Below, one piece after another: positions 6 to 43,286 of a DNA stretch of 50,282 nt. This DNA is from an uncultured bacterium (GTDB taxonomy: Bacteria > Armatimonadota > UBA5829), in the NCBI GenBank assembly GCA_964431685.1, contig CAYSLA010000005.1, forward strand, positions 1 through 50,282, given 5' to 3'. The notes under the pieces are model-generated. The model ran no database searches and was not told the origin of the DNA. It worked only from the letters and a program-made list of their open reading frames with translations. The position numbers and the translations under genes were made by a program. The number at the start of each line of letters is the position of its first letter. Within the stretch, counting starts at the first letter, position 1.

Positions 6-81
6 TGGCTCCCCCGCCTGGACTCGAACCAGGAACCTACTGGTTAACAGCCAGCCGCTCTGCCGATTGAGCTACAGGGGA
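6..81 (-). tRNA. tRNA-Asn (anticodon GUU), CCA encoded
   Basis: The reverse complement folds as a cloverleaf. Acceptor TCCCCTG/CGGGGGA, D-arm GCTC-AATCGGCA-GAGC, anticodon loop CT-GTT-AA, T-arm CCTGG-TTCGAGT-CCAGG, discriminator G plus CCA. Same layout as E. coli tRNA-Asn. Confidence 0.9.
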
Positions 82-11013: not shown

Positions 11014-11169
11014 AGGAATATCTCTCCTGAATGCAATTGTTGGTGTTCGGCGGCTGCCAGGCAGGCGAAGCAAACGCGCATCCTGCCAACGCCAATTATG
11101 GTCTTTGGCAGGATACGCTGTCAAACGAGACGGCTAACGATTGCCGTAAGAGCCGCCGTCTCGCCGAGT

Positions 11170-11266
11170 ACTACGTCATGCCGGTCCTGAATCAAGTTCA
11201 GGATATCCGGCAACCATCCGGAGAAGGGATGGGCCCTGAAACGAGTTCAGGGTGACGTGGTTTCTC
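11170..11266. repeat. composite palindromic element, copy A (multi-hairpin, closing stem ACGTCA/TGACGT)
   Basis: Shares its flanks and central hairpin with 20843-20925: ACTACGTCATGCCGG...CCGGCA[A/C]CCATCCGGAGAAGGGATGGG...AGTTCAGG[G/A]TGACGTGGTTTCTC. It contains CCTGAATCAAGTTCAGG and CCCTGAAACGAGTTCAGGG. Confidence 0.8.
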
Positions 11267-11307
11267 GCATTGACGGCAGCTCTGATGACGATTGCCCGCT
11301 GCAGGCG

Positions 11308-12426
11308 CTATGGTTCCACGATTCGCACAATGTCCGAGGAAGCTCTCACGAGCAGTAGAGGATGGAGACTGCCGTCGGGCGCCTTCGTGCAAGAGGATAT
11401 TGCCGTTATCGCCACATAGGAACCAACTGGCACGGGGCTTATACTCGATGGCACACTCACCGCCATATCCGCTCCGGAACCATCGCTGATCTTGATGCCA
11501 GAGCCGGTTTGCTCTGTAACAACCCCGGTTGTCCGCACCAGTAGCCCTATGTTGCACGGCCCGATGCCTCCCACGACCCCGCGCTGGCCGGTTCCTCTGA
11601 GTGGGTCATAGAACCAGTCGGCCCCGCCAAGCGAGGCGTTGTTCATCGCCAGTGGAGCGATGCTGCCGCTTGCCGTCCTCACCGCGGCGCTAGCGTTTAT
11701 GCAGCGTTCGCCGTCATTTGTGGTCGACGCGACCCCAGCCACAGTTACGCGGGAGCCCGCCGCTAGTCTGTTGTTGGGCCAGTTGACCCGGATTCCGTGA
11801 GACCGATCTTCCGATTCGACATAGAACATATCGGCAAAGGATCGCGTGATCACCGCTCCTTCCATGTTCACGGGCACTCCATCCGGAGCCAGTTTCGAGC
11901 TCCTTATGCCAGTGTAGCTGCCGATAACGGTAAGATCATCCACCGCAAGACCGCCGGGCCCACTGCCCGGGTGTCCGCTCAGAGCAATGCCGGCGCCCTG
12001 GGTCCACCGGTCGGCCGATGAGTCACTGACCGTTGCCGAGTGGCTGACAGGAAGCCCGTTCGCGCTGACACCATCCCACATTATCGTCAGATCGGTCTTG
12101 GACGAGCCGACGTCCACTTTGACAGACAGGGTGGACCACTTCGCGAGATCAACGCCAGTGTGCGGGCTCGAAGCGTTTGTGTATAGGCTGGTCACTGTGC
12201 CGTCGGCGTTCACGCGGTTGATCATCAGCACAAGCGAGCCGCTGCTGATGCTTGTCGCCCTGGCCTCGTATCCGTAGTACGTGGGAGGTGCGCCTTGCGC
12301 CTGCGGGCAGGGGCCGTTGTTGCCGTGGCCACAGGCTGACCGATGGCGAGCCGGTGCCGGTAAAGCGAGCCCGAACACTCGCGACATACGATGGGCTTGA
12401 CAGCGGCATCCCTCGCCGCCGACCAC
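11308..12426 (-). CDS. hypothetical protein, paralog of the decayed gene at 15446-16270
   Basis: 372-aa ORF. Motifs shared with the 15.4-16.3 kb locus: DL[AN]KWSTL, SGSIAPLA[ML]NN, GIG..NIGLLVRTTG, ISSC. No signal peptide is seen and the true start is uncertain. Confidence 0.55.
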   Translation of the reverse strand: MVGGEGCRCQAHRMSRVFGLALPAPARHRSACGHGNNGPCPQAQGAPPTYYGYEARATSISSGSLVLMINRVNADGTVTSLYTNASSPHTGVDLAKWSTLSVKVDVGSSKTDLTIMWDGVSANGLPVSHSATVSDSSADRWTQGAGIALSGHPGSGPGGLAVDDLTVIGSYTGIRSSKLAPDGVPVNMEGAVITRSFADMFYVESEDRSHGIRVNWPNNRLAAGSRVTVAGVASTTNDGERCINASAAVRTASGSIAPLAMNNASLGGADWFYDPLRGTGQRGVVGGIGPCNIGLLVRTTGVVTEQTGSGIKISDGSGADMAVSVPSSISPVPVGSYVAITAISSCTKAPDGSLHPLLLVRASSDIVRIVEP

Positions 12427-20842: not shown

Positions 20843-20925
20843 ACTACGTCATGCCGGACTTGATCCGGCACCCATCCGGAGAAGGGATGGGTCCGGCAGC
20901 CAAGTTCAGGATGACGTGGTTTCTC
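20843..20925. repeat. composite palindromic element, copy B (72-nt core 20846-20917)
   Basis: Closing stem ACGTCAT/ATGACGT. Hairpins GCCGGA-cttga-TCCGGC and ACCCATCC-ggagaag-GGATGGGT. Flanks are identical to copy A. Confidence 0.8.
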
Positions 20926-23091: not shown

Positions 23092-24171
23092 CTAAGCTAT
23101 CTGCTGGAGCTGCTCTTTGGTAACCTGATGCTCCAGCGGCTTGCCCGAGAAGAATCTCTCCAACTCCATAACTGCAAGATTACCAACGCGGGCGATGTTG
23201 TTAGAGGATACGCCCGAGATGTGCGGAGTAAAGATCACGTTGGGCAGAGTCCGAAGAGGATGATCCTCGGCAGGCGGCTCCGGGTCAGTGACGTCCAGAC
23301 ACGCCGTTATCCTGCCAGTCTTGAGCTCTTCGTACAGCGCTGCTTCGTCTATCAGAGAACCCCTCGCCGTGTTGATGATGATAGCTCCGTCTTTCATCAT
23401 CTTGAGGTTCTGCGCGTTTATCATGTGATGGGTTTCGGGAAGGCTTGGTGCGTGCAGAGAGATTACGTCGGACTGTCTGACCATATCGTCCAGACTGTCG
23501 CAGCTCACCACGCCCATCTCTTCGGCCCGATGCCGGGATACGAACGGATCGTAGAGCAGGGTCTCCAAGTCAAAGCACTTCAGCAGTCTGATGAAGTGTC
23601 TGCCCGCGTGCCCGGCGCCTACAACGCCGACGTTGATGCGGTAAGTCTCCTTTATGCGCTCCATCTCCACTGGATCCCGCCAGCCACCGTTGTGGATATG
23701 GTCGTTGAGCTGGTAACACCTCTTCATTGATGAGAGCATGAGTCCGAGTGCGTGCTCAGCTACACCGACCGCTATTGCAGAAGCCGCACTGCTTACCGAT
23801 ATGCCCCTGTCCCAGACGGCCTCGGTGACTATGCTCTTGACCGAGCCTGCGGCGTGAGCGATCATCTTCAGAGAGGGGGCCCGATCGAGCAAGTCAGCCG
23901 TAAGCAGCGGAATATCCCAACTGGTGATGCATCCATCGGCCCCGGCGATGACCTCCTTGACCCTGGCAGGATCACCATCCGGCATTGGGCCGTTGACAAC
24001 CTCGGCAAAACCCTTCAGCCTTTCGATATCCTGAGAAGCGATAATCCTCCTTCCCAGGTTGTTTGGAATGGAGTCCGGTATCATGACTGCTATTCTTGGT
24101 TTCAAGTCTATTCCTCGTGAATTACTCGTTGCTGGAAAGCGGTATGCCAAAGCAACGTAGAGTCGCGTCAT
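23092..24171 (-). CDS. D-isomer-specific 2-hydroxyacid dehydrogenase family protein
   Basis: GVVGAGHAGRHF (NAD fold), NTARGSLIDEAAL, LDVTDPEP, PHISG. The start may be downstream (MIPDS...). Confidence 0.8.
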   Translation of the reverse strand: MTRLYVALAYRFPATSNSRGIDLKPRIAVMIPDSIPNNLGRRIIASQDIERLKGFAEVVNGPMPDGDPARVKEVIAGADGCITSWDIPLLTADLLDRAPSLKMIAHAAGSVKSIVTEAVWDRGISVSSAASAIAVGVAEHALGLMLSSMKRCYQLNDHIHNGGWRDPVEMERIKETYRINVGVVGAGHAGRHFIRLLKCFDLETLLYDPFVSRHRAEEMGVVSCDSLDDMVRQSDVISLHAPSLPETHHMINAQNLKMMKDGAIIINTARGSLIDEAALYEELKTGRITACLDVTDPEPPAEDHPLRTLPNVIFTPHISGVSSNNIARVGNLAVMELERFFSGKPLEHQVTKEQLQQIA

Positions 24172-24840
24172 CCTTAACCCGATTCAGGACTGATCCCGCC
24201 ACTCGGCATGTGCGGGACAAGTGCCGGTATGGCCTTGTTTCCGGCAGAAGTGAGGAATCTGCCCTTTGAATCCTCGGCACGCTCAGCAGATTCCTCCGTT
24301 CCATCGCAATGATGCGTGCGACGAGCGTTAGTCGCCTGACTGCCCCGCGTTTTTCAGCGGCACGCTCATGTCGGTACTGGTGACCTCATTGTCACCATCA
24401 GTATCGCCGTTTAAGAGCAGCGTGTCAAGAGTGACGGACTGACCTGCCCAGACGACCACACCGGGGAACACCCGTCTCAGGAATCCGGAAGCGCTCACCT
24501 CGACGTCGTACACACCGGGGTCGAGGTTAAGAAACGCGTAGCCGCCAGGGTTCTGGGCAAGAGTAACGCTCTGGCTGGCAACGGTCACACCCTGCTGCTT
24601 CAGGTCGATAGAGACCGGAAGCAAATCCAAACTCCCAATGAAGCCCTCGAGAGTTATAGACCCTCCCAGGGAGCTTATGTCGCCGCCGTATCTGATGCCG
24701 CTTGAGAGCCTCAGCTCGTCCATACTGCCGAGCAGGTTGTACCAGTTGTGCCCGTCTTGTCTCCCGGCCACCGTCGCGGGGCCGAGCACAGGATCCGGCG
24801 TGCCCATGCTAGTAACATCCTGCGCAAAGACCTGAACTCC

Positions 24841-24864
24841 CCCTGAATCAAGTTCAGGGCAAGA
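24841..24864. repeat. 24-nt palindromic unit R1 (CCCTGAATCAAGTTCAGGGCAAGA)
   Basis: Exact 20-nt core. It lies between LamG segments ...GGRNII and GVQVFAQD, where the paralogs have KFWKN. The frame is not preserved here. Confidence 0.9.
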
Positions 24865-25134
24865 TAATGTTCCGCCCGCCGGACTCTGCGTCCCTCTGCC
24901 ACGTCACCGCGGCGTGAGTCCAGGTGTTCAAGTCCCAGTCGGTTGACGGATCCATAACAGACTGCCAACCGCCCTTGGCATACCAGCCAACCGACATGCG
25001 CATCCGGCCGCCGGTGTAGACCAGCGACCAACTGTAGTCAGCGCCGGTATAGTTCTGCAGGAGCACCCAGTAGCTATTCTCCAAAGTCGGATATAGCCAC
25101 GCTTCGGCAGTAAGGCTGTCTATTCCAAACCCAA

Positions 25135-25154
25135 CCCTGAATCAAGTTCAGGGC
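25135..25154. repeat. palindromic unit R2 (20-nt core)
   Basis: Exact core CCCTGAATCAAGTTCAGGGC. Removing 22 nt (25133-25154) joins YKKV to GFGIDSLTAEAW in frame. Confidence 0.9.
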
Positions 25155-25177
25155 GACTTTCTTGTAGACGCCGCTCT

Positions 25178-25201
25178 CCCTGAATCAAGTTCAGGGCAAG
25201 C
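25178..25201. repeat. 24-nt palindromic unit R3
   Basis: CCCTGAATCAAGTTCAGGGCAAGC. A clean 24-nt insertion within LamG coding sequence. Confidence 0.95.
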
Positions 25202-25219
25202 TATAGTTAACTTGCAGAG

Positions 25220-25243
25220 CCCTGAATCAAGTTCAGGGCAAGC
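25220..25243. repeat. 24-nt palindromic unit R4
   Basis: Identical to R3 and separated from it by 18 nt (6 codons, LQVNY region). Confidence 0.95.
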
Positions 25244-25322
25244 TGTTGCCGAAGCTGGTCTGTCCGGCGATGTAGTGATTGGGCTGGGCGGCTAGACCAG
25301 TGTTGAGCGTCCCATGCACGTC

Positions 25323-25342
25323 CCCTGAATCAAGTTCAGGGC
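25323..25342. repeat. palindromic unit R5 (20-nt core) at a gene-fragment junction
   Basis: Exact core with a tail (TCGA) that differs from the consensus. It supplies the TGA stop of ORF 25336-27774 and directly abuts the truncated LamG fragment. Confidence 0.9.
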
Positions 25343-27774
25343 TCGATTCCGTCGCGCAGAAGCACCATCCGAAGACTGGGGACGATGTTCATGTTCTTCT
25401 CCGGAAGGTCGGTGCCCCCTGAATCAAGTTCAGGGCAAGCTCTGGGATCGGGCGGGTAGAAGTAGGCGAGAGTGCCGTTCCCATATTGTCCGCCTGGATT
25501 AACCCAGGGATTCTGGAAGACTACGTACTCATTCTCCTGCCACCATATCGCTATCGCCCAGGTGGACATACCCTTCGCGCCCATCCACCACACCTTCGGC
25601 GCCATAAGCCGCTGGTCGATGGAAGGAGCGTCTATGAACTGATGGATGGTTTGTGTGTAGTAGGTCCAGACCTCTTTGCCGGCCGGGTACGCAGCAATGG
25701 CCGCCGGCGAAGCGATGTTGAGCGCATCGTTATTCTCTGGTATGAGAATATCAACGTGGTTGCGAAGAGCATCATAGGCCTCGGCGTTGTAGACGTAGGC
25801 ACCCATCTTCACGTCCTTAGCGTGCGGCTGCAGACGGAATGCGTCTATGAAGTTACGGACTCCCTGATACGCGTAGGGCTGCGGTTCGTCAATCTGAACA
25901 AACGCGTTATCAAGCCAGCCTTTGGCCGCCAAGTGAGCAGCAAGCGGCTCGTAGTAGCTGGTCACATATGGCGTCGCGCTCTCCACTGTGGTGTCTGCGA
26001 GAAGAGGGCCGGACTCGTGGCCGATTGAGTGAGTACTCAAGTTCAGTTCATCCAAAACACGGGAGTACTCCACGTCGTATTCTGCGGGGAACGCCGGGAG
26101 CGTGCCTGTGTACCACACGTAAGGAATCAAAGGATTGGTCTCGGCTATCTTGTAGCGAGCCATCTCGGAGACATAATCTCTCGTCAGGCTGTATTTGTCC
26201 ACGCGCTCAGTGACCTTGTGGAACGGAAAAACCTCGGCGCTGGCATATCTGGACATCTGGAAGGATGTCTTGCAGCTCGGCCGCTCCGGCAGAACGAAAT
26301 TCCACACCTTGAGTTCAACCGGCACATTGACCACGCCGGCTGACGTATGCAGGTTCACCTGGCCGTTGTAGGTTCCCGCAGGCATCTGCCTGGGAATGGT
26401 CACGTCTACCCAGATAATGATATTGGGATCACCCGCGTCGAACGACACCGGGGCAAATTTCACCAAAGGATCCGGCAGGTTACCGGTGAATGCGGAGCGT
26501 ATCGGTTCGGTCAGGAACTGGCCCGTCTTCGACGGAGTGTGAATAGGCACATAGCAGGCGCGGCGAATATCGAAATTCCTCTGTGGAACGGTTACGCCGC
26601 CGGGACCAGTAAGACTCGCGCTGACTGAGGTAATCGCTCCCGCCGAGGTTGGGCGGAAGACCAGTTGCAGCGCCTCCGACTCATTACGCGCACATGAGAT
26701 AGAGACCTTGGTACGGTTGGCGCTCGGTGCCTGAGCATTCTCCAGAACCTTTTTTGTGGTGGACGTATACCAAAGACTGCCCAGGCTGCCCGATGGCAGC
26801 GAGTATGATATGTCTTCCTCAACCCATTCGGTGGCTGCAAGCTTGGTAACGTTCAGCGTCTGAGACGGAAGGGAAGATGCCTGCTGACTCGGAACGTGCG
26901 GTGTTATCCCTTCCAGCGGAGAGTAGTACAGGTCATAATACTTTGTGCCACTCGAGGCTGCGTTCAGGACGAACCCCACCTGGCACTCGCGCAAAGAGAT
27001 ATCGTCAGCGGCGGACCCCAGTATACGCTCAAACCGCACTTGCAGTTTGTCATTGATCCAACCCGCTTTGTCCCACGTGTTGAAGTAGTACTCGCGTGAA
27101 TACCATCCGGTTGCAGGTATGTACGGATCGCTGTAGGTGTGCGATACGGGCTGCCACCATAGGTCGTTGACGTTGGAATACGCAGCGGACGAGCCAGACC
27201 CCTTCGCCCAATGGGAGTACCGATACCACGTGTTGGGGTTAACGGTGACATACTGCCAACAGGCGGACCGATCCTGGGCGGTGCCCTGCACAGTCATACA
27301 CCAACTGCCGTCGTGTGAGTTCTGCTGCAAGACAAACGATGCCGGCTGGTCTATGTTCCATCCCACCGGCACGCCGCCGGACTGCTGCTCGAAGTTGCCG
27401 TTCACTACCAGTTCCTGAGTTCCCACCACGATCTTGTAGGCCGCGGACACATTGTCGCTGATCAGGTTGCCGCCCGCGTCGACCTCAACGAGTTTCACGT
27501 TGTCATAAGAGAAGTACTCGTGCTGGAACTTGAACTCGGCCTTCTCATTTAGCCAACTGGTGATCGTCTGAGGCGTCAGATTGAGCGCATACGAACCGGC
27601 TGACGGCACGCTCACAGATATGCGAACTCTGAACGGGTAGTAACTGTCCGTCCAGGGAGCCGCATATACTCCCAAAGCACCAATCACCAGAATGACCGTG
27701 ACGGCCAGAATGCAGAAAAACGATTGCCTGGTTCTGCCAAGGATAGTCTTAGACATATTGTTGTCCATCATCAT
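25336..27774 (-). CDS. DUF4091-like putative glycoside hydrolase (GH123-like), N-terminal membrane anchor; C-terminus truncated
   Basis: 812 aa. Motifs ARNESEALQLVFRP, ELKVWNFVLPE, GNGTLAYFYP...PSLRMVLLRDGIE. The usual continuation (DYE...; compare SIRWEVWAESLQDYAILQ in 48494-50095) is missing, and the ORF stops inside R5. Confidence 0.75.
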   Translation of the reverse strand: MMMDNNMSKTILGRTRQSFFCILAVTVILVIGALGVYAAPWTDSYYPFRVRISVSVPSAGSYALNLTPQTITSWLNEKAEFKFQHEYFSYDNVKLVEVDAGGNLISDNVSAAYKIVVGTQELVVNGNFEQQSGGVPVGWNIDQPASFVLQQNSHDGSWCMTVQGTAQDRSACWQYVTVNPNTWYRYSHWAKGSGSSAAYSNVNDLWWQPVSHTYSDPYIPATGWYSREYYFNTWDKAGWINDKLQVRFERILGSAADDISLRECQVGFVLNAASSGTKYYDLYYSPLEGITPHVPSQQASSLPSQTLNVTKLAATEWVEEDISYSLPSGSLGSLWYTSTTKKVLENAQAPSANRTKVSISCARNESEALQLVFRPTSAGAITSVSASLTGPGGVTVPQRNFDIRRACYVPIHTPSKTGQFLTEPIRSAFTGNLPDPLVKFAPVSFDAGDPNIIIWVDVTIPRQMPAGTYNGQVNLHTSAGVVNVPVELKVWNFVLPERPSCKTSFQMSRYASAEVFPFHKVTERVDKYSLTRDYVSEMARYKIAETNPLIPYVWYTGTLPAFPAEYDVEYSRVLDELNLSTHSIGHESGPLLADTTVESATPYVTSYYEPLAAHLAAKGWLDNAFVQIDEPQPYAYQGVRNFIDAFRLQPHAKDVKMGAYVYNAEAYDALRNHVDILIPENNDALNIASPAAIAAYPAGKEVWTYYTQTIHQFIDAPSIDQRLMAPKVWWMGAKGMSTWAIAIWWQENEYVVFQNPWVNPGGQYGNGTLAYFYPPDPRACPELDSGGTDLPEKNMNIVPSLRMVLLRDGIEP
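25417..25440. repeat. 24-nt palindromic unit R6, in phase inside the DUF4091-like ORF
   Basis: Identical 24-mer. On the minus strand it occupies exactly 8 codons (GCT TGC CCT GAA CTT GAT TCA GGG = ACPELDSG). Confidence 0.95.
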
Positions 27775-27898: not shown

Positions 27899-28843
27899 CT
27901 ACTGACCGATCTCGTCAATGTTCGGGATAATAGTCCCTACATCGGCAGCATCAATGGTGTTGTCACCGTTCACATCACCGTTAGTGAGCGAGAAGTTGGC
28001 AGAAGCGGTCTGCCCGATCTCGACCACCACTCCGGAAGCTTTCTGCCGAAGGAATCGGCCCGCGTTGGCGTAGACGTCGTAGGTTCCCGGTTCAAGCTTG
28101 TTGAAACTGTATGAACCCGGATTGCTGGACACGGTCACCGTCTGCGTGGCAACCGTATTGGCCCCCTGTTTGAGCTCAACCTTGACCGGGACCGGCGCGA
28201 AGCTCGCACTGACGTCCTGAAGCGTAATCTGCCCAGCGATGTTGCCCACGGGCACTCCGTATCTGAGGACATTGGACATCCTGAACTCATCGATCTGGCC
28301 GAGGAAGTTGTACCAGGGATGACCGTCTACCCATCTACCGCCCACACTGGCAGGGCCGCCAATTGGCGCCGCCAGACCAAGCAGCGTAACATCCTGCTCG
28401 AAGACCATAACGCCGTTCTTCCAGAACTTGATGATGTTAGCTCCGCCGGTGTCTGACCTCTTCTGATAGGTAACAGCAGCATGCTGCCAGGGCGCGCTCG
28501 GCCCCGCCTCCCACTCAGTCACGTCATCTTGTACCAGTTGCCAGTTCCCGCTGGCATACCAGCCAAAACCCATGCGCATCTTGCCGGCAACATAGGTGAA
28601 GCTCCACTGGTAGTTGCCGCCAGTGTAGTTCTGGATCATAACCCAGTAGCTGTTCGCCTCGTAGGGCTTAATCCAGCACTCAATCGTCAGATCGTCGGTA
28701 TAGGAACCAAGAAGGGCGTTAGCGGGCAGGTCAATCTTCTTATACCCTCCATCGTAGACAATCTTCAGGGCATTTCCAAAACCCGCTTTGTCACTGGCAA
28801 CGTAGTGGTCTGCCTGTATCGCCTTCAGCCACAGTGATACCTG
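27899..28843 (-). pseudogene. LamG / CarboxypepD_reg / dockerin-like paralog lacking start, signal peptide and N-terminal ~55 aa
   Basis: The stop-to-stop frame is open from 28843. Homology begins at QADHYVASDKAGFGNALKIVYDGGYKKIDLP (~28816). The first Met in the track (28639) lies inside the LamG domain. Confidence 0.75.
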
Positions 28844-29879
28844 TTACCACCTGCTTCAGGAACCCTGGCGCGGATATCGCCACGTCATACGTTCCGGCCT
28901 CCATATTGCCGAAGCTGAATATTCCAGGGTTGCTCGTGAAAGTCACGGTCTGAGTCTGGAGCACCGTGGCGCCCTGCTTCAGCTCTACCGTCACCGGGAC
29001 GAGCGTAAGGTCTCCGACGTATCCCTGCAGTGTAACTGTGCCGCCAATAGATATCTCCTGGGTTCCGTACCTCAGTACATCTGAGAGCCTGAACTCATCG
29101 ATCTGGCCCAGCACGTTGTAGTAAGGATGGCCGTCCATCCTCCCACCAAGTGTGGCGGGGCCGTTGACCGCGGTCGGTTCGCCAGTATCCGGATCGGGTC
29201 CTCCTTCGCTGAACCCCCAACCAGTGACATCCTGCCGCAGGACTTGCTCGCCGTTCTTCCAGAACTTTACTATGTCACGCCCGCCAGTGTCGGATCTTCT
29301 CTGAACAGTTACAGCGGCGTGATTCCAGACACCGATTTCCCAGTCCGTCGAACTGTCGGTGACGTCCTTCCATCCGCCAAAGCCGTACCAGCCCAGATAC
29401 ATGCGCATCTTCCCAGCATCGTACAACATACCCCAGTTGTAGTCGCCGCCGGTATAGTTCACGAAGATGACCCAGTACGTGTTGGGCTCGACCGGGCGAA
29501 TCCACGCCTCCATCGTAAAGTCGCTCGGCCCCATCCAGAACTTCACATTGTCCGGATAGGGCACTTCAGGGAAACCTACATTCTTGTAGATGAACCCGGT
29601 ATAGTGAATGCGCAGAGCGTTGCCAAAACCGGCCTTGTCACTCACAACGTGGTGATCGACCTGTCCGGCCAACCCCGTATTGAGCGTTCCATTTACGGGG
29701 TTAGGAGCAGAATCAATAACTGTCGTGGACGTCAGGTCTTCGTCAAAATGAAGCAGTAGCCGAGTGTTCGCGTCCGCGTCGAACGGCTGGGTCCAGTCGG
29801 TGTAGTTCTGTGCGCACAGCGGCGCGCAAAGCGCTACAAACACAGCAAGAGAAAGCCACACCAATTGTCTTCTCAACAT
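28791..29879 (-). pseudogene. LamG / CarboxypepD_reg paralog lacking its C-terminal dockerin-like end
   Basis: RBS GGAAGGAGA, then ATG 29879 (MLRRQLVWLSLAVFVALCAPLCAQ signal peptide). The ORF ends ...GFLKQVVTGITVAEGDTGRPLRCQ*, where the paralogs continue about 35 aa to the NGDxDGDN motif. Confidence 0.7.
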
Positions 29880-30133
29880 TACATGTCTCCTTCCACGAAA
29901 TAATCGAATGACTCGACGGTCACTCGTCAGGTTTTGCCCGGAACGCCGCTGCATACCGCCAGGCGCATGCCGGGCCAGATCAGACTACAACTGTACTGGC
30001 TGCCACACCTCCCCCCAAGAATGTATCGTGCAGCACTGCACCAATCACCCAAGTCCTGCCAGGCCGGATCCGATTGGCATCACAAGGCCCTACGGGTCCG
30101 ACCCGCTCTTCTGTGTCGCGTAATACTACTGTT

Positions 30134-31193: not shown

Positions 31194-34100
31194 CTAGTCA
31201 ACTGATAACTCGTGTCTCACGGTCTTGCCAGATACTGCTTCGACGGCCTCGATACACCACTTGCCTCTGGGGTCGTTCAGCGCAACTGGGATGTCGTATG
31301 CACCTTCGCCGGCTTTCAGATAGACCGCTCTGCTCAAGTATGACCTGAGCCGGTTTTCGGAGTCAAACACCTTTACGTTCACCGTGTGGTTACCCGGATT
31401 CTGACCATCGCCGGATCTCACGCGGAGCTTTAGCGTAACGGCGTTTCCCCGCTTGACGCGCGTGTCGCCGCCCATCTGCAATCCATCCACCCTGTAGGGC
31501 AGTAGTGCGAGTAACGATGCGTCGCCCGAGGCCATCCTGGTCTGGGCTGTATCGGTGTAACCCAGGTAAGCCTTGTCGCGTACGCTGTACAGGTGCCCTG
31601 AGCGCTTCAGAGGCACGCTGACGTCGAAGTCACGGTGATTACGCACAAAGAAATCTCGGATCACCCCGATGTAGTCAATGTCTCCGTCTGTATAGGCGAA
31701 AACCTCCGTGTGCGGCACCGGAGCGCGATCGGAAGTAACATTGTAGGGCGGTCTCACGTTCCCATAGAACGAGATGAAACCCCGAATGATGTCTTTGTAG
31801 TCGTCCTCCACACCGTTGCGCCGCGCGTTGAAGTACGCGTAAAGATCAGAATTGAGAAACAACGTGCGGCCCTTGCCATACTGATTCACGATGAACACAG
31901 GGACACCGAACTCGTTGTGTCCGGTGGCCGTGCCAGTGGTGACCTTGATATCCGGATGGCAGAAAAGGCCTCTTAGTTCTCCGTTCATTGGTCCGAAGTT
32001 GTCATCAACACTGATCCGGCAGTCACGTTTCTCGACCCCGTAGGAAGACCTCTCTATGCCAAACACATCGTCAAGCGGGCTCTTGTCGTAGAACTTGCAG
32101 TGCTCATCGCGAATACCTGTCCGGTAGTCCGCGATAAGCATGCCGCCATTGCTCACGAAGTCACGGATGTTCGCAATCTCCTGCGAACCCAGCGACTCCA
32201 CGAACGGCAGAACCATAACCGAGTACTGACCGCCACTGAGTTTGCCTTGTTCGATCTCCTGTCGAGCGATCATCTCCGGCTGGAAACCCAGGTCAGAGAA
32301 GAGGGTGAGGAAGTTCTTCGTTGCGGTGGCATAGTGGCCGACTGGCTCGATGTCGCCGAAGAGCTTGAGTTCGTCCGGATCACTGCCGCACATAGGCTTC
32401 TTGAACCAGTCGTCGTTGATGAGGCCGAGGTTATTGACGTGCAAACCCATACCGCTGGAAAGAGTACTGGCGTGCCAGTTGTTCTCCGAGTAGTGGATCG
32501 CGATCGGGTCTGGGGCCAGGTCGGCGTGTTTCAGAATCGTGCCCGCACCTTCCTGTATCTCATTCGCGGTCTTCAGTATCTGCGCATAGATGGACGACGG
32601 CTTGAGGTCGATATCATAGGCGTCACACTCCGGACCGAGGAACGTGGCGGTCCACCACCACACACTGTTGAAGCCGGCGAACGCCATATACCAGGGCGTG
32701 TAGGTAAGTCCCCAGGTTGAATCGAGCCCGTTCATCCAGCCGCCGCGCAGGTTATCCTTGCTCGTGAACGACCTCACGCACTGGCCATTGAACATCTTGT
32801 TCGGGTACGCCCCCTTGATCTGATACTGAGCATAGACGTTGTTGATGTCCAGTCCACGTGTGTACTTGAACCAGTCGTATCCGTCGTAGCTTGAGTACTG
32901 CTCGCAGCCGTCGTAGCCGACCTTTGCGCCAGGATGGATGGTGTGTATGAGATCCCTGAAATCATAGTGGAGGTTCATGAAGCTGTCCGTAAGGAACATG
33001 CGATAGTCTACCCACGGCGACGGGTTCTTCTCGTCGGCAAGCAGTTGCTGCTCGTCCTGCACGGTCACCGCGTCAAAGGAAGTGTATGAACTGTCCCACT
33101 GTTTGTTCAGGGCAGAAATATCCGTGTAGTGGTTCCGTAGCCAGTCCCTGAAAAGCCCCACGACCTTGGGCGAGGTGGAGAAGCGCCCCTTGGGATCAAA
33201 TGCGCTCAGGTATATCTCATCACCAAGAGTGTAGCCCGGACTGCCATACTTGGAGAAAGCACGAGCTGCTATCTGCGCGCGTTCTCGCATTCCACCAACC
33301 CACTCTTCGCTGAACATTCCATCATCCAGCAGAGTTCCAGCCAACACCGTGGTATAGGGCATGCCTACCAGGCCGGATGCCGCAAAGGCCCTCGCGCTTA
33401 CTTCGTCGTGCCCGCAGTTGGCAAAGCCGGTGACACCGGAGTTGTATATGACGTCGTGGTACTTCTTGCTTCTGACATCGTCACCAGCGCCGGACCACAA
33501 CCATATCTGAAAGTCCTTGCTCTCAGCCTTCTCCGGAATCGTAAACTCCACCGTTTTCCTGTCGAGCAACCGAGCACCGGAACGCAGGCTCAGCCTGACA
33601 TAGTTCAACACGCTGAGCGAGCCTTCCGGAACACGCATCGTGATATTCTGTGGAAGAGACGAATAGTCCCTTGTGAAGTAGCGGCGACCGTGAACGTCGT
33701 CTATGTCGACTGTAAGGGACAACCGATTGGCAGCATCGGAATAACCGATGTCCAGATTGAGCTCATCGCCAGTTCTCAGAGTGTCTTTTGTCAGCTTGGC
33801 GGATGTGATGGCAGGATTGCTGTCCACCGCGTGCATTACTGATATCCAGTCGACAATTGACCCGTCGCGAGAGAGGTCGAGCTCGATGCAGTAGGGGCCG
33901 TTGGGCAGATCCGGAAGCTTGATCTGCACAGATCGTGCGCCTGGCCTGACCTCAGAAATTCCCTGGGCCATCTTGTTACAGTCTACGTCGACTACTCGCC
34001 AAGCCGCTGCTCGCGGTGCGTCAGCCTCCGCGAGACTCACAAGACAAGACGTCTCGCTATCCATCCGGGCTTCTTCAATCTCCCCGGCGTCGATGCCTTT

Positions 34101-34820
34101 GCCGAGTTTGTAGATCAGGCTGGCAACCCGGCGGTACTTGTACTGGTCGTCAAGCAGGGTTTTGCTCAGCGATACCAGGTAGCCAAACCTGCTGTCGCCC
34201 TGATAGTTGACTGTGGCAACGCGACCTTTGCCGAAACGGTAGTATCTGTCTTGAAAGCCACGCACTTCCGAGATAGAACCAAATCTGTTCAGATTCAGCT
34301 TCAGCTCTTCGAACGCGAGGCCGGTCTTCTTCATGTCCTCGAGAGCTTCATCTCCGAGCCCGATGGCCAGCAGCCTGGCTCCCCCCGACACCTTGTCGAT
34401 GATGGCCTGTCGGACAACCTCAGGGTACTTGCCCCACGAGGGGTTGGCCCCCAGGACGATCACATCCCAGTTCCTGCTCAGCGCTGCAAGCGCATCACTG
34501 GTCATGCGCGGCTCGGGAACCCGCAGTTCGGTCCAATACACGGTGCGTCTCTCGAACTCGTCAGGATAGTAGGAGGCCCCTGTCCTGATTGTCGCGATCA
34601 GGCAGTCCATCCGGTCAGCGAGTTCCAGAGAATCGCGATGCGCCGGATACAACGCGATGGACAGTATCTTGACCCTGCCGTGCTTCAGACCGGCGAGCGG
34701 CACACCGTCAGGGGATACTATTGTCTGATACCCTTCGGCGTCGCCGTGGACAAGCCCGAGTGCGGGCAGCGCCGATAACGCCAGCGACACTGCCGCTGCT
34801 AACAGCAAGCGTATGAACAA
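31194..34820 (-). CDS. large secreted GH42-like (beta-galactosidase-like) family protein, 1208 aa
   Basis: Signal peptide MFIRLLLAAAVSLALSALPALG. GH42-like RDWLRNHYTDISALNKQWDSSYTSF. Trimerisation-domain-like YSVMVLPFVESLGSQEIANIRDFVSNGGMLIA. Confidence 0.65.
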   Translation of the reverse strand: MFIRLLLAAAVSLALSALPALGLVHGDAEGYQTIVSPDGVPLAGLKHGRVKILSIALYPAHRDSLELADRMDCLIATIRTGASYYPDEFERRTVYWTELRVPEPRMTSDALAALSRNWDVIVLGANPSWGKYPEVVRQAIIDKVSGGARLLAIGLGDEALEDMKKTGLAFEELKLNLNRFGSISEVRGFQDRYYRFGKGRVATVNYQGDSRFGYLVSLSKTLLDDQYKYRRVASLIYKLGKGIDAGEIEEARMDSETSCLVSLAEADAPRAAAWRVVDVDCNKMAQGISEVRPGARSVQIKLPDLPNGPYCIELDLSRDGSIVDWISVMHAVDSNPAITSAKLTKDTLRTGDELNLDIGYSDAANRLSLTVDIDDVHGRRYFTRDYSSLPQNITMRVPEGSLSVLNYVRLSLRSGARLLDRKTVEFTIPEKAESKDFQIWLWSGAGDDVRSKKYHDVIYNSGVTGFANCGHDEVSARAFAASGLVGMPYTTVLAGTLLDDGMFSEEWVGGMRERAQIAARAFSKYGSPGYTLGDEIYLSAFDPKGRFSTSPKVVGLFRDWLRNHYTDISALNKQWDSSYTSFDAVTVQDEQQLLADEKNPSPWVDYRMFLTDSFMNLHYDFRDLIHTIHPGAKVGYDGCEQYSSYDGYDWFKYTRGLDINNVYAQYQIKGAYPNKMFNGQCVRSFTSKDNLRGGWMNGLDSTWGLTYTPWYMAFAGFNSVWWWTATFLGPECDAYDIDLKPSSIYAQILKTANEIQEGAGTILKHADLAPDPIAIHYSENNWHASTLSSGMGLHVNNLGLINDDWFKKPMCGSDPDELKLFGDIEPVGHYATATKNFLTLFSDLGFQPEMIARQEIEQGKLSGGQYSVMVLPFVESLGSQEIANIRDFVSNGGMLIADYRTGIRDEHCKFYDKSPLDDVFGIERSSYGVEKRDCRISVDDNFGPMNGELRGLFCHPDIKVTTGTATGHNEFGVPVFIVNQYGKGRTLFLNSDLYAYFNARRNGVEDDYKDIIRGFISFYGNVRPPYNVTSDRAPVPHTEVFAYTDGDIDYIGVIRDFFVRNHRDFDVSVPLKRSGHLYSVRDKAYLGYTDTAQTRMASGDASLLALLPYRVDGLQMGGDTRVKRGNAVTLKLRVRSGDGQNPGNHTVNVKVFDSENRLRSYLSRAVYLKAGEGAYDIPVALNDPRGKWCIEAVEAVSGKTVRHELSVD

Positions 34821-34838
34821 GGTATTTCCCTCCGATTA

Positions 34839-35171
34839 TCACTTGACATCCAGGAACGCATAGGAACTCAGCCCGCTGACCGTATCCGTAGCCTGCACTC
34901 TCCAGATGCCGGGTTTATCATTGAGCGCGAGTTTTGTCACCATAGATCCACTGTTGCCATCAACTAGTATGTTATGCGCATAGCACCTGACCTCGGTGCC
35001 GTCCGGGCCAAAGAACTGTATGTGAGAGTTGGTCCGCGACTTTGACTTGGAGTCCGTGGAAACAGACACTGACAGCTTTAGCTCCTTGCCTCGAGTCGCT
35101 GTCTGAGGAAGCTTCAGCGCAACTGATTTGACCCGATAGGGTGTTACTGCGTACAGCTTGGCCTCACATGG
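34839..35171 (-). pseudogene. C-terminal domain of the 35172-37046 gene, cut off by an in-frame TAA
   Basis: It is in the same frame as 35172-37046 with no other stop. PYRVKSVALKL...FFGPDGTEV...ALNDKPGIWRVQATDTVSG aligns with the C-terminus of the 1208-aa paralog (PYRVDGLQM...VALNDPRGKWCIEAVEAVSG). Confidence 0.75.
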
Positions 35172-37046
35172 TTAGATATTGGCCTTGACCTCGTCGCCAA
35201 ACCCTATATATCGCTTCTCGCGAACGTCATAGATGTGGCCACTGGTGTCCAGCTTGAGGGTGCAGTCAAGTCCCTGGCCTTTCTGCATGCGTGATTCCTG
35301 GGGCACATAGTAACTGGTGCGGAATGACTCTTGGACCAGCGGGTAGTACACGACGTTGTCCGACCCCACAAACTTGCCTATCCGATAGTACGGCGCACTC
35401 TTCTCAGGATAGTACGGTGTGGTAATTGTCACGGCCCGCAGGGGGTAGTCCTCGCCCAGTGCCTTTCGGAAGACCTCGCGGTACGCACGCGCCATCGACT
35501 CCCTGCCTGCCATCGGATCGTGGTAAGGTCCCGGCAGCGGATCGGGCAGATAGACTTTGTAGTTGCTCAGATATGAGTTGACGAACACTGCGCGCCCGGC
35601 TCCGTGTTTCTTTGAGGTGACCAGGGGCAGAGCATCCGTAAATGTGCTGATCACTTCCGCCTGAACTGGCTCGTCATAGCAGGTCACGTAGTTGACCTTC
35701 TCCAGCAGATAGGGCCAGTCAAAGCCTATGGCTCCGGCGTATCTGGTACCCTCAATGCCAAACCTGAACTTGCTGTCCCGCTCCTGAAGGGACTCGAGTG
35801 TAGCGCCGTGAATATCCGCGAACAGCTTGTCCATATAAAGGCGGTACTCCAGCCACGGCGCAAAGGTGTAGATCTCGTCGCCGTCTCCGGCTCTCAGATC
35901 GTCCTTGCTTATCTCGCCGGCAACGCCTCCGCCGCCCACCTCCACGTCGGAGCGTGCCAATGTCTCACTTATGTTGCCCAGCTCAGCCGGTTGGGTTTCA
36001 CCGAATGACTTGTAGGACGTTCCCCAGCTCCTGTTGAACCGCGAGAGGTCGCCCGCATACGACTGCTCCATCCACTTTCGGAAGGCCTCGATGTTCTTTG
36101 GCGCGTATGACATCCAGCTCTGCTGCTCGTCGCCGGACAGGTATGTATCTACCCCCCACTTCTTGGCCACGTCCGCGTTCCGGTTCACGTGCCACACGTA
36201 TTGGGAAACGAACGCGTCGTCTCCAAGCACCATCCGGCTTTCATCGGCCGGCCTCCAGAGTCGATTATCCTCGGCTCTCGCAAGGTATGAGAGAACTCCA
36301 GCGGAGTACTGGAAGATCGGCCTGATACCGTGCACGGCCAACGTGCCAAAGAAGTCATCCAAGACCCCATCCCACTCCTCGTCAGACAGCTTCTGGGACG
36401 CATAGTAGTTTGCGTACGCCGTACTCCCCACAACGCCCACATCTCTCTGAGTCTTGAGCGCGTGCAGTGCCCAGGGCCTGTTGAACTGGAATGGCGCTTC
36501 GCCCCACACGTCGAAGACGAACTCCTCAACTTTGTGGTCGAAATCGTCCAGTCCGCAGGCCACCGGTTTCTTGACCACGTCGACGATCTTCCCGGCGTTC
36601 TTGAGAGTCACCGACAAGAAGACCCCACTGCTCTTCGCATCTGAAGTGTCCATATTGAATCGCGCTTTGCCGCCGTCGACACGCCTGGAGTCGGACCAGA
36701 TAAGACGATCGTAACCGTCGTGGACTTCAGCCTGCAAGGTGTCTCCGGCGGAGGCCGAGTCGAGAACCACATCAAACGTTCCTCCGGCCTTGGGGTAGCC
36801 TGACTTTGCTGTCTGAACTTCCTTGATTCCCGGCCGTGTGCCTTCGACTGGGACGACACAGAAGTCCAACGTCCTGCCATACATGTCCTTGAGCCATAGA
36901 TTTGCGAGGTTTTCGCCCTTCCTGACAACCGAAAACGCCTCCGCCAGCGGCACGCGGACTGCGCCTGCTCCGTCCGTATTCACGGCGAAAGCCGCGCTTG
37001 AGCAGAGCTCATAGTTCTTATCTCTGAGTTCGCTCACCAGCGTCAT
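35172..37046 (-). CDS. GH42-like family protein, middle segment of a split paralog
   Basis: 624 aa. FRKWMEQSYAGDLSRFNRSWGTSYKSF. Colinear with residues ~430-1090 of the 1208-aa protein. Confidence 0.65.
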   Translation of the reverse strand: MTLVSELRDKNYELCSSAAFAVNTDGAGAVRVPLAEAFSVVRKGENLANLWLKDMYGRTLDFCVVPVEGTRPGIKEVQTAKSGYPKAGGTFDVVLDSASAGDTLQAEVHDGYDRLIWSDSRRVDGGKARFNMDTSDAKSSGVFLSVTLKNAGKIVDVVKKPVACGLDDFDHKVEEFVFDVWGEAPFQFNRPWALHALKTQRDVGVVGSTAYANYYASQKLSDEEWDGVLDDFFGTLAVHGIRPIFQYSAGVLSYLARAEDNRLWRPADESRMVLGDDAFVSQYVWHVNRNADVAKKWGVDTYLSGDEQQSWMSYAPKNIEAFRKWMEQSYAGDLSRFNRSWGTSYKSFGETQPAELGNISETLARSDVEVGGGGVAGEISKDDLRAGDGDEIYTFAPWLEYRLYMDKLFADIHGATLESLQERDSKFRFGIEGTRYAGAIGFDWPYLLEKVNYVTCYDEPVQAEVISTFTDALPLVTSKKHGAGRAVFVNSYLSNYKVYLPDPLPGPYHDPMAGRESMARAYREVFRKALGEDYPLRAVTITTPYYPEKSAPYYRIGKFVGSDNVVYYPLVQESFRTSYYVPQESRMQKGQGLDCTLKLDTSGHIYDVREKRYIGFGDEVKANI

Positions 37047-37082
37047 GCTGAACTCGATTCAGCACCCAGACGTTCCCTTCTC
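37041..37082. repeat. partial copy of the composite palindromic element, at an ORF boundary
   Basis: CGTCATGCTGAACTCGATTCAGCACCCAgacgtTCCCTTCTC. Compare the reverse complement of element A, CGTCACCCTGAACTCGTTTCAGGGCCCATCCCTTCTC. It contains the palindrome GCTGAA-ctcga-TTCAGC (37047-37063). Confidence 0.7.
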
Positions 37083-38438
37083 TACCGCTACCTCCAGCAC
37101 ACCATTCTCGGCCTTCGCTGAGACTATCCGGACCGCGGGCTTCCGGGCTGAAACGCTGTATATAAGGTCGATTAGAAAAGCGTAGAAGTTCTCGCTCGGA
37201 GTCGGCATGGTCTTGTAGAATCCAAACTCCGGCAAGAACGCGCTTCCCATAAAGTTGAGTTTCTCTCGATAGAGAAAGTTTTCGTATCTGAGGAGAGCCA
37301 CACTGCCGCTGCCGTGGTTTCCCAGAGAGAGCATGTCTTCGGGAAGCGGCTTCATCAGTTGGACCTTGTCCAATGCAAACCGAGAAATGACCCGGGACTG
37401 CAGCTCGGGTGTAGAGCTCAGGCTGGAAAGCACGGCGTCCATATCCCCAAGCATACATTCTTTCAGCGGGTTAGAGTATATGAGGCCAGTTCCGGACTTC
37501 ACCTTGGCGAGAATGGCTGTCCGTACACTCTGGGGCAGATCTGACCATTTCACGCTGGCGCCGAGCATTAGTACGTCCCAGTCGTGAGACAGCAAGTTCA
37601 GCGCCTTCTGCTCTTCGACTATCGTCATCGCGGGCACTTCGGGTTGGTCGCCAGTGGAGTTCCAAATTATGGGAACCCAGTCCCACTTGAGGTCCATGCG
37701 CTGGTTGAGTTCGGCGATGTCCCTGAACTGACCCATGTGCGTGAAGAACAAGGCTCTGACAGTGCCGACGGCCGAAGGCGCCGACCAGACGACGTGAGGG
37801 GTGACCACTTCCGTGTTCATCTGCAGCCAGGCGCTGAGGGAGGCATCTCGCATCCAAAGCTCCTCCAGACTCATTGTAGCCTGAGGACGAACCAGCTCAC
37901 GGCTGCCGCTGCCCCGGGTCACCTCGATCTCATTGATCTTACAGCCCCAGTAGTTGCGCACGAATACAGCGACGTAGCGCCCATAGCCGGTCAGTCCACT
38001 GAAATCGACGAACGGCGAGACGGCGTCCGCAAGGCTGGCTTGATCATAGTTGGCGAATGGCTTGCGCTCGGCGAGGAACTGCAGCTTGTCCAGCGTCTCT
38101 CCTGCGTAGACGGCGAAATGCGGTTTGAGATTCACCCAGGCACTGGTGTAGTTGTTGGTGGTGCCCGAGTAGATTCTCACGTGATCTATGAACTCCGGCT
38201 TCTCCAGATCGATGAGCACATATGTATGATCACTCCAGTTGTCGCCCCAGTCGGCGAAAGTCTCCACATCACCGTCGGTAATCCGGGAGAAGAACGCCGC
38301 CGTGGTGTTCACGACGGGCAGAGTGACCACCTTCTTGCCCAGTGCCACGTTAGTCCGGTCGTCGGCCCCGAACGCGGCAGATATCATCGAGACCGTCAAT
38401 ACCAAGAGCAAGAAACAAACCCAAGCCAAACGACGCAT
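37059..38438 (-). CDS. discoidin (F5/8 type C)-like domain protein, N-terminal segment of the split GH42-like paralog
   Basis: Signal peptide. ITDGDVETFADWGDNW..YVLIDLEKPEFIDHVRIYSG (discoidin-like). VRALFFTHMGQFRDIAELNQRMD and WDVLMLGASVKWSDLPQSVRTAILAKVKSG align with the N-terminus of the 1208-aa protein. Confidence 0.65.
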   Translation of the reverse strand: MRRLAWVCFLLLVLTVSMISAAFGADDRTNVALGKKVVTLPVVNTTAAFFSRITDGDVETFADWGDNWSDHTYVLIDLEKPEFIDHVRIYSGTTNNYTSAWVNLKPHFAVYAGETLDKLQFLAERKPFANYDQASLADAVSPFVDFSGLTGYGRYVAVFVRNYWGCKINEIEVTRGSGSRELVRPQATMSLEELWMRDASLSAWLQMNTEVVTPHVVWSAPSAVGTVRALFFTHMGQFRDIAELNQRMDLKWDWVPIIWNSTGDQPEVPAMTIVEEQKALNLLSHDWDVLMLGASVKWSDLPQSVRTAILAKVKSGTGLIYSNPLKECMLGDMDAVLSSLSSTPELQSRVISRFALDKVQLMKPLPEDMLSLGNHGSGSVALLRYENFLYREKLNFMGSAFLPEFGFYKTMPTPSENFYAFLIDLIYSVSARKPAVRIVSAKAENGVLEVAVEKGTSGC

Positions 38439-42416: not shown

Positions 42417-43286
42417 CTACTTCGATCTGCGGCGAAGCGCAGAACCGATTGCGGCACAGCAACCCATCGCGAGCACCGCTAGTGATGCGGGCTCAGGAAC
42501 AGGAGCAGCTCCATAACGGATCGAGTCCGAGATTCTAAGCTCATCCATCTGGCCAAGGAAGTTGTACCACGGATGGCCATCAATCCACCTGACAGCCACT
42601 CCTGCCGGCCCGCCTATCGGATTCGGCAGGCCGAGAAGTGTACTGTCCTGCTCGAAGACCATGACGCCATTCTTCCAGAACTTCACGACATCAACTCCAC
42701 CGGTATCCGATCTTCTCTCGTGAGTCACAGCAGCGTGCACCCAGGGAGCATTCGGTCCGGCCTCCCAGTCCGTCACGTCATCCTGGACGACTTGCCACGC
42801 ACCGGCGCTGTACCAGCCAAGGCCCATGCGCATCTTGCCAGCGACATTGGTGAATGTCCACTGGTAGTCGCCTCCAGTGTAGTTCTGGACGATATTCCAG
42901 TAGCTGTTCGCCTCATACGGCTTGAGCCAGCACTCGATGGTCAAATCTTTGTCGCCAATCGCCAACTTGTCATCCGCGGGCAGGTCGATCTTCTTGTACG
43001 CGCCGTCGTATACGATCTTCAGCGCATTGCCAAACCCGGCTTGGTCACTCGCGACATAATGGTTTGCCTGGCCGGCCAGACCGGCGTTCAGAGTGCCATT
43101 GATGTTGTTCCCGCTGGAGTCGTTTGCGGTAACAGCATCCAGACCGTCGTCGAAGCGCAGAAGCAGCAAAGTGTTGGCATCTGCATCGAACGGCTCGTCC
43201 AGTCAGTGTAGTTCGCCGCAAAAGCCGCTGTAAGGGCAAACAAAGAAACGACTACCACACACAAAACTGTTCTGAAGTACTTCATC
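42417..43286 (-). pseudogene. LamG (Laminin_G_3-like) protein with PEP-CTERM anchor; 1-nt frameshift after the signal peptide
   Basis: MKYFRTVLCVVVVSLFALTAAFAANYTDWT is in one frame and EPFDADANTLLLLRFDDGL... in the next. C-terminus VPEPASLAVLAMGCCAAIGSALRRRSK (PEP-CTERM). Confidence 0.8.

Follow-up and report, generated by a model that had tools for sequence, protein, structure and literature searches.

A palindromic repeat fragment carries both the stop codon and the following ATG at the break in a GH42-like gene of an uncultured Armatimonadota bacterium

How does one large gene come to be read as two open reading frames (ORFs) that lie four codons apart in the same frame, and do the parts still work? 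This question is raised by a gene for a GH42-like glycoside hydrolase in an uncultured bacterium of the Armatimonadota (lineage UBA5829), located in a stretch of 50,282 nt (contig CAYSLA010000005.1 of assembly GCA_964431685.1, positions 1 to 50,282) that we refer to as the window. On the minus strand, an N-terminal ORF (37059-38438; 459 codons, served by an AGGAG ribosome-binding site) ends in ...VAVEKGTSGC and a TGA at 37059-37061; four codons (IEFS) follow, giving a spacer of 12 nt, before the ATG at 37044-37046 opens a second ORF of 624 codons (35172-37046). The coding strand at the boundary reads GTA GAG AAG GGA ACG TCT GGG TGC TGA ATC GAG TTC AGC ATG ACG CTG. An initial annotation, made from the sequence alone, had described this arrangement correctly as to position, frame and gap, and had explained it by the insertion of a repeat element bringing its own stop and start. 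Here we show that the 42 nt at 37041-37082 are indeed element-derived and hold both the TGA and the ATG, and we argue that they most probably replaced native sequence in a gene that is decaying.

When aligned locally, the boundary and element A (11170-11265), the repeat to which the initial annotation had likened it at about 37 of 47 positions, shared 36 identities in 47 columns, for a score of 24. The other 1,484 66-nt tiles of the window had a mean score of 8.9 (sd 1.5, maximum 20), which places the boundary about 10 sd higher, and the best of 2,000 shuffles scored 15. As no tile and no shuffle reached the observed score, the fear that the match might be no better than chance was not borne out. 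The motifs concerned are likewise over-represented: the window has nine occurrences of CTGAAN5TTCAG, where zero are expected (none in shuffles), and three of GAGAAGGGA, in two element copies and at the boundary, against 0.49 expected. Moreover, positions 37041-37071 agree at all 31 nt with a repeat at positions 783-813 of L147, an unrelated contig that belongs to the same metagenome series. Were the TGA instead a plain nonsense mutation of a CGA codon in a variable loop, and the likeness to the element a coincidence, this would fit the observation that most codons of the patch may lie a single base from a codon for the residue found in the orthologous proteins P0001 or P0004, if codon choice is left free. 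Given the 31-nt exact match, the failure of any tile or shuffle to reach the score and the confinement of GAGAAGGGA otherwise to elements, we consider this explanation extremely improbable.

What kind of repeat is this? CGTC-tagged repetitive extragenic palindromes (REPs) have a CGTC (or TGTC/CCTC) tag, a stem of 8-9 bp starting with AT, a loop of 4-5 nt and a CCA tail (Di Nocera, De Gregorio & Rocco 2013, BMC Genomics 14:522; PMC3733652). The plus strand at 37041-37072, antisense to the gene, reads CGTC-ATGCTGAA-CTCGA-TTCAGCA-CCCAGACG and comprises a complete REP with tag, stem, 5-nt loop and CCA tail, the part after the loop dividing into TTCAGCA(C) and CCA GACG. The CGTC at 37041-37044 is unpaired, ATGCTGAA and TTCAGCAC form seven pairs plus an A·C at the first position around the loop CTCGA, and CCCA stands at 37065-37068. 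The first-position imperfection is shared with a local copy at 20847 (plus strand), and the CCCA with that copy and another at 11257 (minus strand). These two sites and 37041 (plus strand) were the only ones in the window that a census of hairpins with an 8-position stem, a 5-nt loop and a CCCA tail returned. Next to the REP, at 37074-37082 of the plus strand, lies TCCCTTCTC, the complement of the GAGAAGGGA motif in the central loop of the full element. All the parts named in the initial annotation, i.e., the palindrome GCTGAA-ctcga-TTCAGC (loop TCGAG on the coding strand), the CGTCA end and half of the central hairpin, are therefore present, and the claim that both codons came from the element holds: on the coding strand, the 5' arm of the REP hairpin (GCTGAA) contains the TGA, and the CAT of the tag CGTCAT gives the ATG as its complement.

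The boundary unit is also repetitive. Besides the 31-nt exact copy in L147, many copies were found in 34 loci of the same sample series, whose contigs probably belong to the same genome, judging by sample, GC content and tetranucleotide similarity. In loci fetched from GTDB genomes, a common variant, CGTCATGCTGAACTTGTTTCAGCATCCAT, occurs 35 times, and the boundary REP is identical to it at 25 of 29 positions. Judged by these sequence features, which cover every structural criterion of Table 1 in PMC3733652, the boundary repeat is a member of the CGTC-tagged REP superfamily; it is neither extragenic nor part of a head-to-head dimer, being a single unit within a reading frame.

Element A, in contrast to this single unit, is a miniature inverted-repeat transposable element (MITE). 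We gathered 34 loci (L137-L170) by a gapped-pattern scan of metagenomes and aligned them. The element measures 124 or 139 nt, and 15 full copies carry 12-bp terminal inverted repeats (TIRs), GTAAGAGCTCAG and CTGAGCTCTTAC; target-site duplications (TSDs) of 8 bp flank 14 of the 15 distinct full copies. Its interior consists of a head-to-head REP dimer flanking a central hairpin, and in the 139-nt class, to which the window copy at 11146-11288 belongs, a second palindrome, TCCTGAATCAAGTTCAGGATA, is nested in the loop of the left REP. Counting the 8-bp duplication, an insertion lengthens its site by 132 or 147 nt, and both figures are divisible by three. Full copies are almost all intergenic. This applies to the first reference copy in the window (11146-11288, plus strand), which has degenerate ends and a flanking duplication, (A)CGATTGCC; the second (20846-20925, plus strand) is a degraded core with a simple left REP, CGTCATGCCGGACTTGATCCGGCACCCA, between an MFS gene and mutS. 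Near 37041-37082, no match to either TIR was better than chance, and the boundary shows neither an 8-bp TSD nor any added length. The lack of TIR and TSD means that the boundary is not a MITE insertion.

Two further observations were made on the element copies. In L147, positions 600-900 consist of tandem units of about 110 nt, each with one GCTGAA-type and one CCGAA-type REP. When the left flanks of L146, L147 and L152 were compared, L147 and L152 were found to have the right part of the element in common and to diverge from within a REP stem, which suggests rearrangement at REPs.

Could the break be an artefact? At the boundary, no difference is seen among seven independent assemblies, each from its own sample (JGI, ENA and Logan), so that a sequencing or assembly error is excluded and the TGA is real in the population. 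The protein of the 624-codon ORF was found identical on eight contigs. The contigs of L005, L006 and L007 start 23 or 127 nt upstream of the ATG; in the 23-nt case, a Logan contig, the start falls within the REP, as would be expected if this REP is repeated exactly in the genome over at least 31 nt and the assembly graph breaks there.

To establish which state is ancestral, the split ORFs were compared with four orthologs (48-68% identity): P0001 (1,471 aa, full-length, 66% identity to the split ORFs), P0003 (1,478 aa, full-length, 48%), P0010 (1,478 aa, full-length, about 50% identity to P0001) and P0004 (a partial sequence, 68%). Taken singly, the N-terminal and middle ORFs show 67% and 69% identity to P0001, and the middle one has a weak GH42 match. 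A neighbouring gene of 575 aa is kept in the contigs of P0001, P0003 and P0010, i.e., in all ortholog contigs with visible neighbors. All four orthologs form an unbroken chain through the boundary site, so that the unsplit state is ancestral and the split derived. Orthologs with two separate ORFs and an element-free boundary, which the initial annotation had named as the finding that would speak against it, were thus not what we observed. It had relied instead on the adjacent 1,208-aa paralog, which is indeed continuous in this region, yet shares only 22-32% identity with the split gene, and the orthologs are the better comparison.

The alignment also shows how the element sequence sits in the gene. 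The spacing from a conserved D/N to the motif E[LV]RD is exactly 24 codons in the window and in all four orthologs, and the 14 codons EKGTSGC*IEFSMT stand one-for-one in place of AQEALPDRLASGLT in P0001. The position of the TGA is occupied by Arg in P0001 and P0004, Phe in P0003 and Gly in P0010; that of the ATG is Leu in all four, as part of a conserved Gly-Leu. Since the 24-codon spacing is unchanged, 42 nt were replaced by 42 nt and nothing was inserted. The initial proposal of gene fission by element insertion therefore stands in part: the split is derived and both codons at the break lie in element sequence, but there was no insertion.

Equal length in all orthologs would also be explained if the loop had housed a REP from the outset. 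In such a scenario, a stop-free REP with a CCGG stem, comparable to the palindromic elements within Rickettsia genes, sat in frame in the ancestral loop and was later converted by another REP to the CTGA-stem type, CGG (Arg) becoming TGA. A CCGG-stem REP in this frame would encode C-R-I-K-S-G-M-T, which may be set against D-R-L-A-S-G-L-T in P0001, and patchwise change of a REP arm from strain to strain is in fact seen (TTCAGG versus CTGCCGG, detailed below). At the DNA level, however, the orthologous loci L008 and L129 show no REP likeness at the site (scores of 10 and 8, the background mean) and no REPs anywhere else. In the distant paralog, the equivalent loop, AEADAPRAAAW, is similar and is coded by non-REP DNA, and the Pro-x-Arg motif thus appears to be native. 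We therefore regard an ancient in-frame REP as unlikely.

Are the two ORFs nonetheless a working pair? Under the functional version of the initial proposal, the element would have supplied a stop and a start, and the ORFs would encode cooperating polypeptides through translational coupling. Several features agree with this: stop and ATG share one frame with only 12 nt between them, none of the seven assemblies departs from the arrangement, the downstream ORF stays open for 624 codons at 69% identity to P0001, and a terminating ribosome would melt the hairpin over the AUG. That hairpin has a predicted energy of -14.3 kcal/mol and takes in the AUG at 37046, the ATG lying at its foot; the local hairpin alone is notable, as the fold of the whole 61-nt region is no better than that of shuffled sequences (z = -0.59). 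No Shine-Dalgarno sequence precedes the ATG at 37046, whereas most genes of the window, the N-terminal ORF included, have AGGAG-type sites. Furthermore, when the ortholog segment was modeled with AlphaFold (pLDDT 72; about 80 in the strands concerned), the stop fell in a loop that joins strands 2 and 3 of one predicted β-sandwich, suggesting that the break falls inside this fold and not at a domain border.

The downstream part, moreover, carries lesions of its own. At the junction ...PVQAEVI / STFTDALP... (35646-35660, minus strand) about 272 codons present in the orthologs are missing in frame; an AEV microhomology is found on both sides of the junction in the orthologs, and the deletion takes out the Glyco_hydro_42M (GH42M) region, as placed by Pfam on the paralog and orthologs. 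A second in-frame stop, the TAA at 35172-35174 (minus strand), stands where orthologs have Tyr or His (ANI-Y/H-PCEAK). Beyond it, the frame is kept in a C-terminal domain remnant (34839-35171, minus strand) whose 110 codons align without gaps to P0001 1362-1470 at 55% identity (E = 3e-45). The locus as a whole is thus one frame of 1,200 codons (38438-34839) with two stops and one large deletion. With no cut at a domain border, neither a Shine-Dalgarno sequence nor an overlapping stop-start, a downstream part that has lost its GH42M region and is cut again by TAA, and four of four orthologs unsplit, a functional fission appears quite unlikely. Nor was a convincing stop-plus-ATG arrangement, which the initial annotation had suggested looking for at other copies, found in any of the roughly 36 inspected. 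L152 had seemed to offer a second start at a REP ATG and was rejected, the N-terminus looking spurious. We infer that the 624-codon ORF is not productively translated; the truncated N-terminal product may still be made.

Reading of the UGA as selenocysteine, or its programmed readthrough with help from the hairpin, would require the stop to be recoded, and a UGA within a stable hairpin could be taken as a hint of this. The UGA, however, lies in the 5' arm of the hairpin and not upstream of it, the orthologous residue is Arg, Phe or Gly and never Cys or selenocysteine, and the second interruption is a TAA. TGA, TAA and TAG each terminate long ORFs in the window, TGA many of them; this normal use of all three stops gives no indication of recoding, for which we see hardly any likelihood.

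Taken together, the data are best accounted for by a 42-nt internal fragment of the MITE, made up of one REP and part of the central loop, that overwrote loop DNA base for base in a gene that is now a recently inactivated pseudogene; we put the probability of this reading at roughly 0.7. The patch replaced would have been DNA coding a surface loop of the GH42-like protein. Read antisense, a REP of this type always presents a TGA, from the stem CTGAA, and an ATG, from the tag CGTCAT, and in the frame occupied here both fall in phase, such that translation meets a stop and, 12 nt on, an ATG. As both codons are inherent in the REP and happen to be in phase, the stop-plus-start is explained as a by-product, with no need for adaptation. 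MITE transposition is excluded by the lack of terminal repeats and of any change in length; we favor arrival of the fragment by template-directed replacement, either as short-patch conversion or as an insertion with deletion. A carrier of GAGAAGGGAACGTCTGGGTGCTGAA elsewhere in the genome would count as the direct donor of the boundary patch.

Several points weigh against this reading. We know of no established mechanism for an exactly length-neutral replacement by REPs. Termination followed by reinitiation 12 nt past a stop is possible without a Shine-Dalgarno sequence, and some translation of the 624-codon ORF may occur in this way. The 1,200-codon frame has its two stops and its in-frame deletion but no frameshift, which implies either that decay is very recent or that some selection still acts on the fragments. 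The population itself is almost clonal, leaving no room for a dN/dS test. Finally, the DNA comparison at the site covered L008 and L129, whereas the two closest orthologs are P0001 and P0004.

Is the overwrite seen elsewhere? One locus from another sample, L156, is 99.7% identical to window 10715-11776 over 1,063 nt, the sole difference being one REP arm (11197-11200), TTCAGG versus CTGCCGG; L156 is thus a strain variant of the MITE copy at 11146-11288, altered by a patch that does not reach beyond the repeat. In the gene of the 1,208-aa paralog, otherwise identical assemblies differ by clusters of five to six substitutions per 12-18 nt, at 34806-34823 (against L001/L131) and at 31481-31492 (against L005); these look like short recombination tracts between strains. 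L001, although labeled as a contig of 50,381 nt and so almost as long as the window, is among those that differ.

A related case is found in a GH123-like gene of the window. Its ORF (25336-27774, minus strand) reads through one copy of GCCCTGAACTTGATTCAGGG, a palindrome of the family described here, in frame and ends at a TGA within the next, and the LamG-type domain that follows it contains four more identical copies (region 24328-27774, minus strand), giving six identical palindromes in all at 24837-25447. Comparison with LamG-type paralogs at 27899-28639, 28791-29954 and 42417-43169 revealed that two copies are clean insertions of 24 nt (AGCTTGCCCTGAACTTGATTCAGG) with two TGA codons each; the remaining ones stand in for paralog-equivalent sequence and shift the frame. 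Worked out by hand from the frames and the alignment, as automated gapped DNA alignment was too noisy for sizing each palindrome event, the net changes were +24, +24, +7, -2 and -11 nt. The span of these values takes in a net change of zero. No further lesions were visible in about 1.1 kb of this GH123/LamG region. Just downstream of the LamG remnant, at 24157-24222, lies a degraded element fragment, CCTGAATCGGGTTAAGG, which is the background tile that scored 20.

A general process in which REP sequence spreads into coding DNA and breaks it by template-directed short-patch overwrite, from REP donors and with little or no change in length, instead of by transposition, would explain the 42-for-42 swap at the boundary, the exchanged REP arm at 11197-11200 and the LamG remnant at 24837-25447 alike. 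We advance it only tentatively and hold it to be rather unlikely. If true, such a conversion-type mechanism would bear on the question raised in PMC3733652 of how CGTC REPs, which have no transposase, form and propagate.

As to the wider distribution of these sequences, a GTDB scan for the palindrome returned matches mostly in unrelated phyla, with a common consensus, gaGAYCCTGAAACAAGTTCAGGRTGACG, and covarying stems in the partner hairpin. The hairpin CGTCAY-NCTGAA-CTTGWT-TTCAGN, again with covarying stems, was present in loci L009-L128 from GTDB genomes of Sphingomonadales (many), Bacteroidota, Treponema, Patescibacteria, Gracilibacteria, Elusimicrobia, Nitrospinota, Rickettsia and others, a host range wider than the five phyla of PMC3733652. 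A search with the ortholog alignment across metagenome and genome contigs found no relatives. The MutS of the window is about 80% identical to that of Armatimonadota metagenome-assembled genomes; the relatives at this level of MutS identity (L133-L136) are not syntenic, and the 48 kb sampled from them contain no REPs of this type. At Rfam gathering thresholds nothing in the window was reported for the elements, and a literature search with the palindrome as a text string gave no result. A tRNA gene at 9-81 (minus strand) was the sole Rfam match at these thresholds in the window.

The locus illustrates how a small palindromic repeat can, purely through its own sequence, truncate a gene and offer a restart codon, after which automatic annotation lists two 'genes' for a single broken one. 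It also adds Armatimonadota to the hosts of the CGTC REP family, whose units are housed here in a MITE with ends of the transposon type and duplicated target sites. Among known systems with paired REPs, REPINs are REP doublets mobilized by REP-associated tyrosine transposases (RAYTs), and their REPs are of the GTAG type with a linked RAYT gene. The MITE resembles them in its inverted REP doublets, which could form a long hairpin, but its tag is CGTC and its doublets bear the hallmarks of DDE-type transposition (TIR and TSD). Among those ORFs of the window that were examined, a part of the total, none resembled a RAYT gene. The ends point elsewhere: IS66 elements have terminal inverted repeats starting with GTAAGCG and 8-bp direct repeats (PMC11946415), and the full 124/139-bp element, with its TIRs, GTAAG ends and 8-bp duplications, resembles an IS66-derived MITE. 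On the strength of end sequence and TSD length only, element A may thus be tied to an IS66 transposase. The boundary differs from such MITEs in being an internal 42 nt with neither TIR nor TSD.

Palindromic repeats of the same superfamily are known inside genes of Rickettsia, where CGTC-1 corresponds to Rickettsia palindromic element (RPE) 6 and CGTC-4 to RPE-4; these lengthen the protein by residues that the REP encodes (20-30 amino acids where repeats are dimeric or grouped) through stop-free read-through, and the host proteins are thought to be functional (PMC3733652). The Armatimonadota case is similar in that a repeat of this superfamily lies within a protein-coding gene, as is typical in a loop or linker, but here no residues are added, the TGA is in frame, and the host gene has a deletion and a second stop. 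CGTC REPs at large occur mostly as head-to-head dimers, with intragenic units documented and no dedicated transposase, and their ends can give stop codons to flanking ORFs (PMC3733652). The boundary unit shares with them the tag, the 8-position stem from AT, the 5-nt loop and the CCA-type tail, and the full elements share the dimers. It departs from them in giving an in-frame stop and an ATG together, in replacing native sequence rather than adding to it, and in its host, Armatimonadota being outside the five listed phyla and the dimers there lying within a MITE with TIRs and TSDs. Seen against these systems, the boundary repeat is a piece of a known repeat family lying within what is probably a decaying gene, and the length-neutral replacement is its sole trait beyond the routine.

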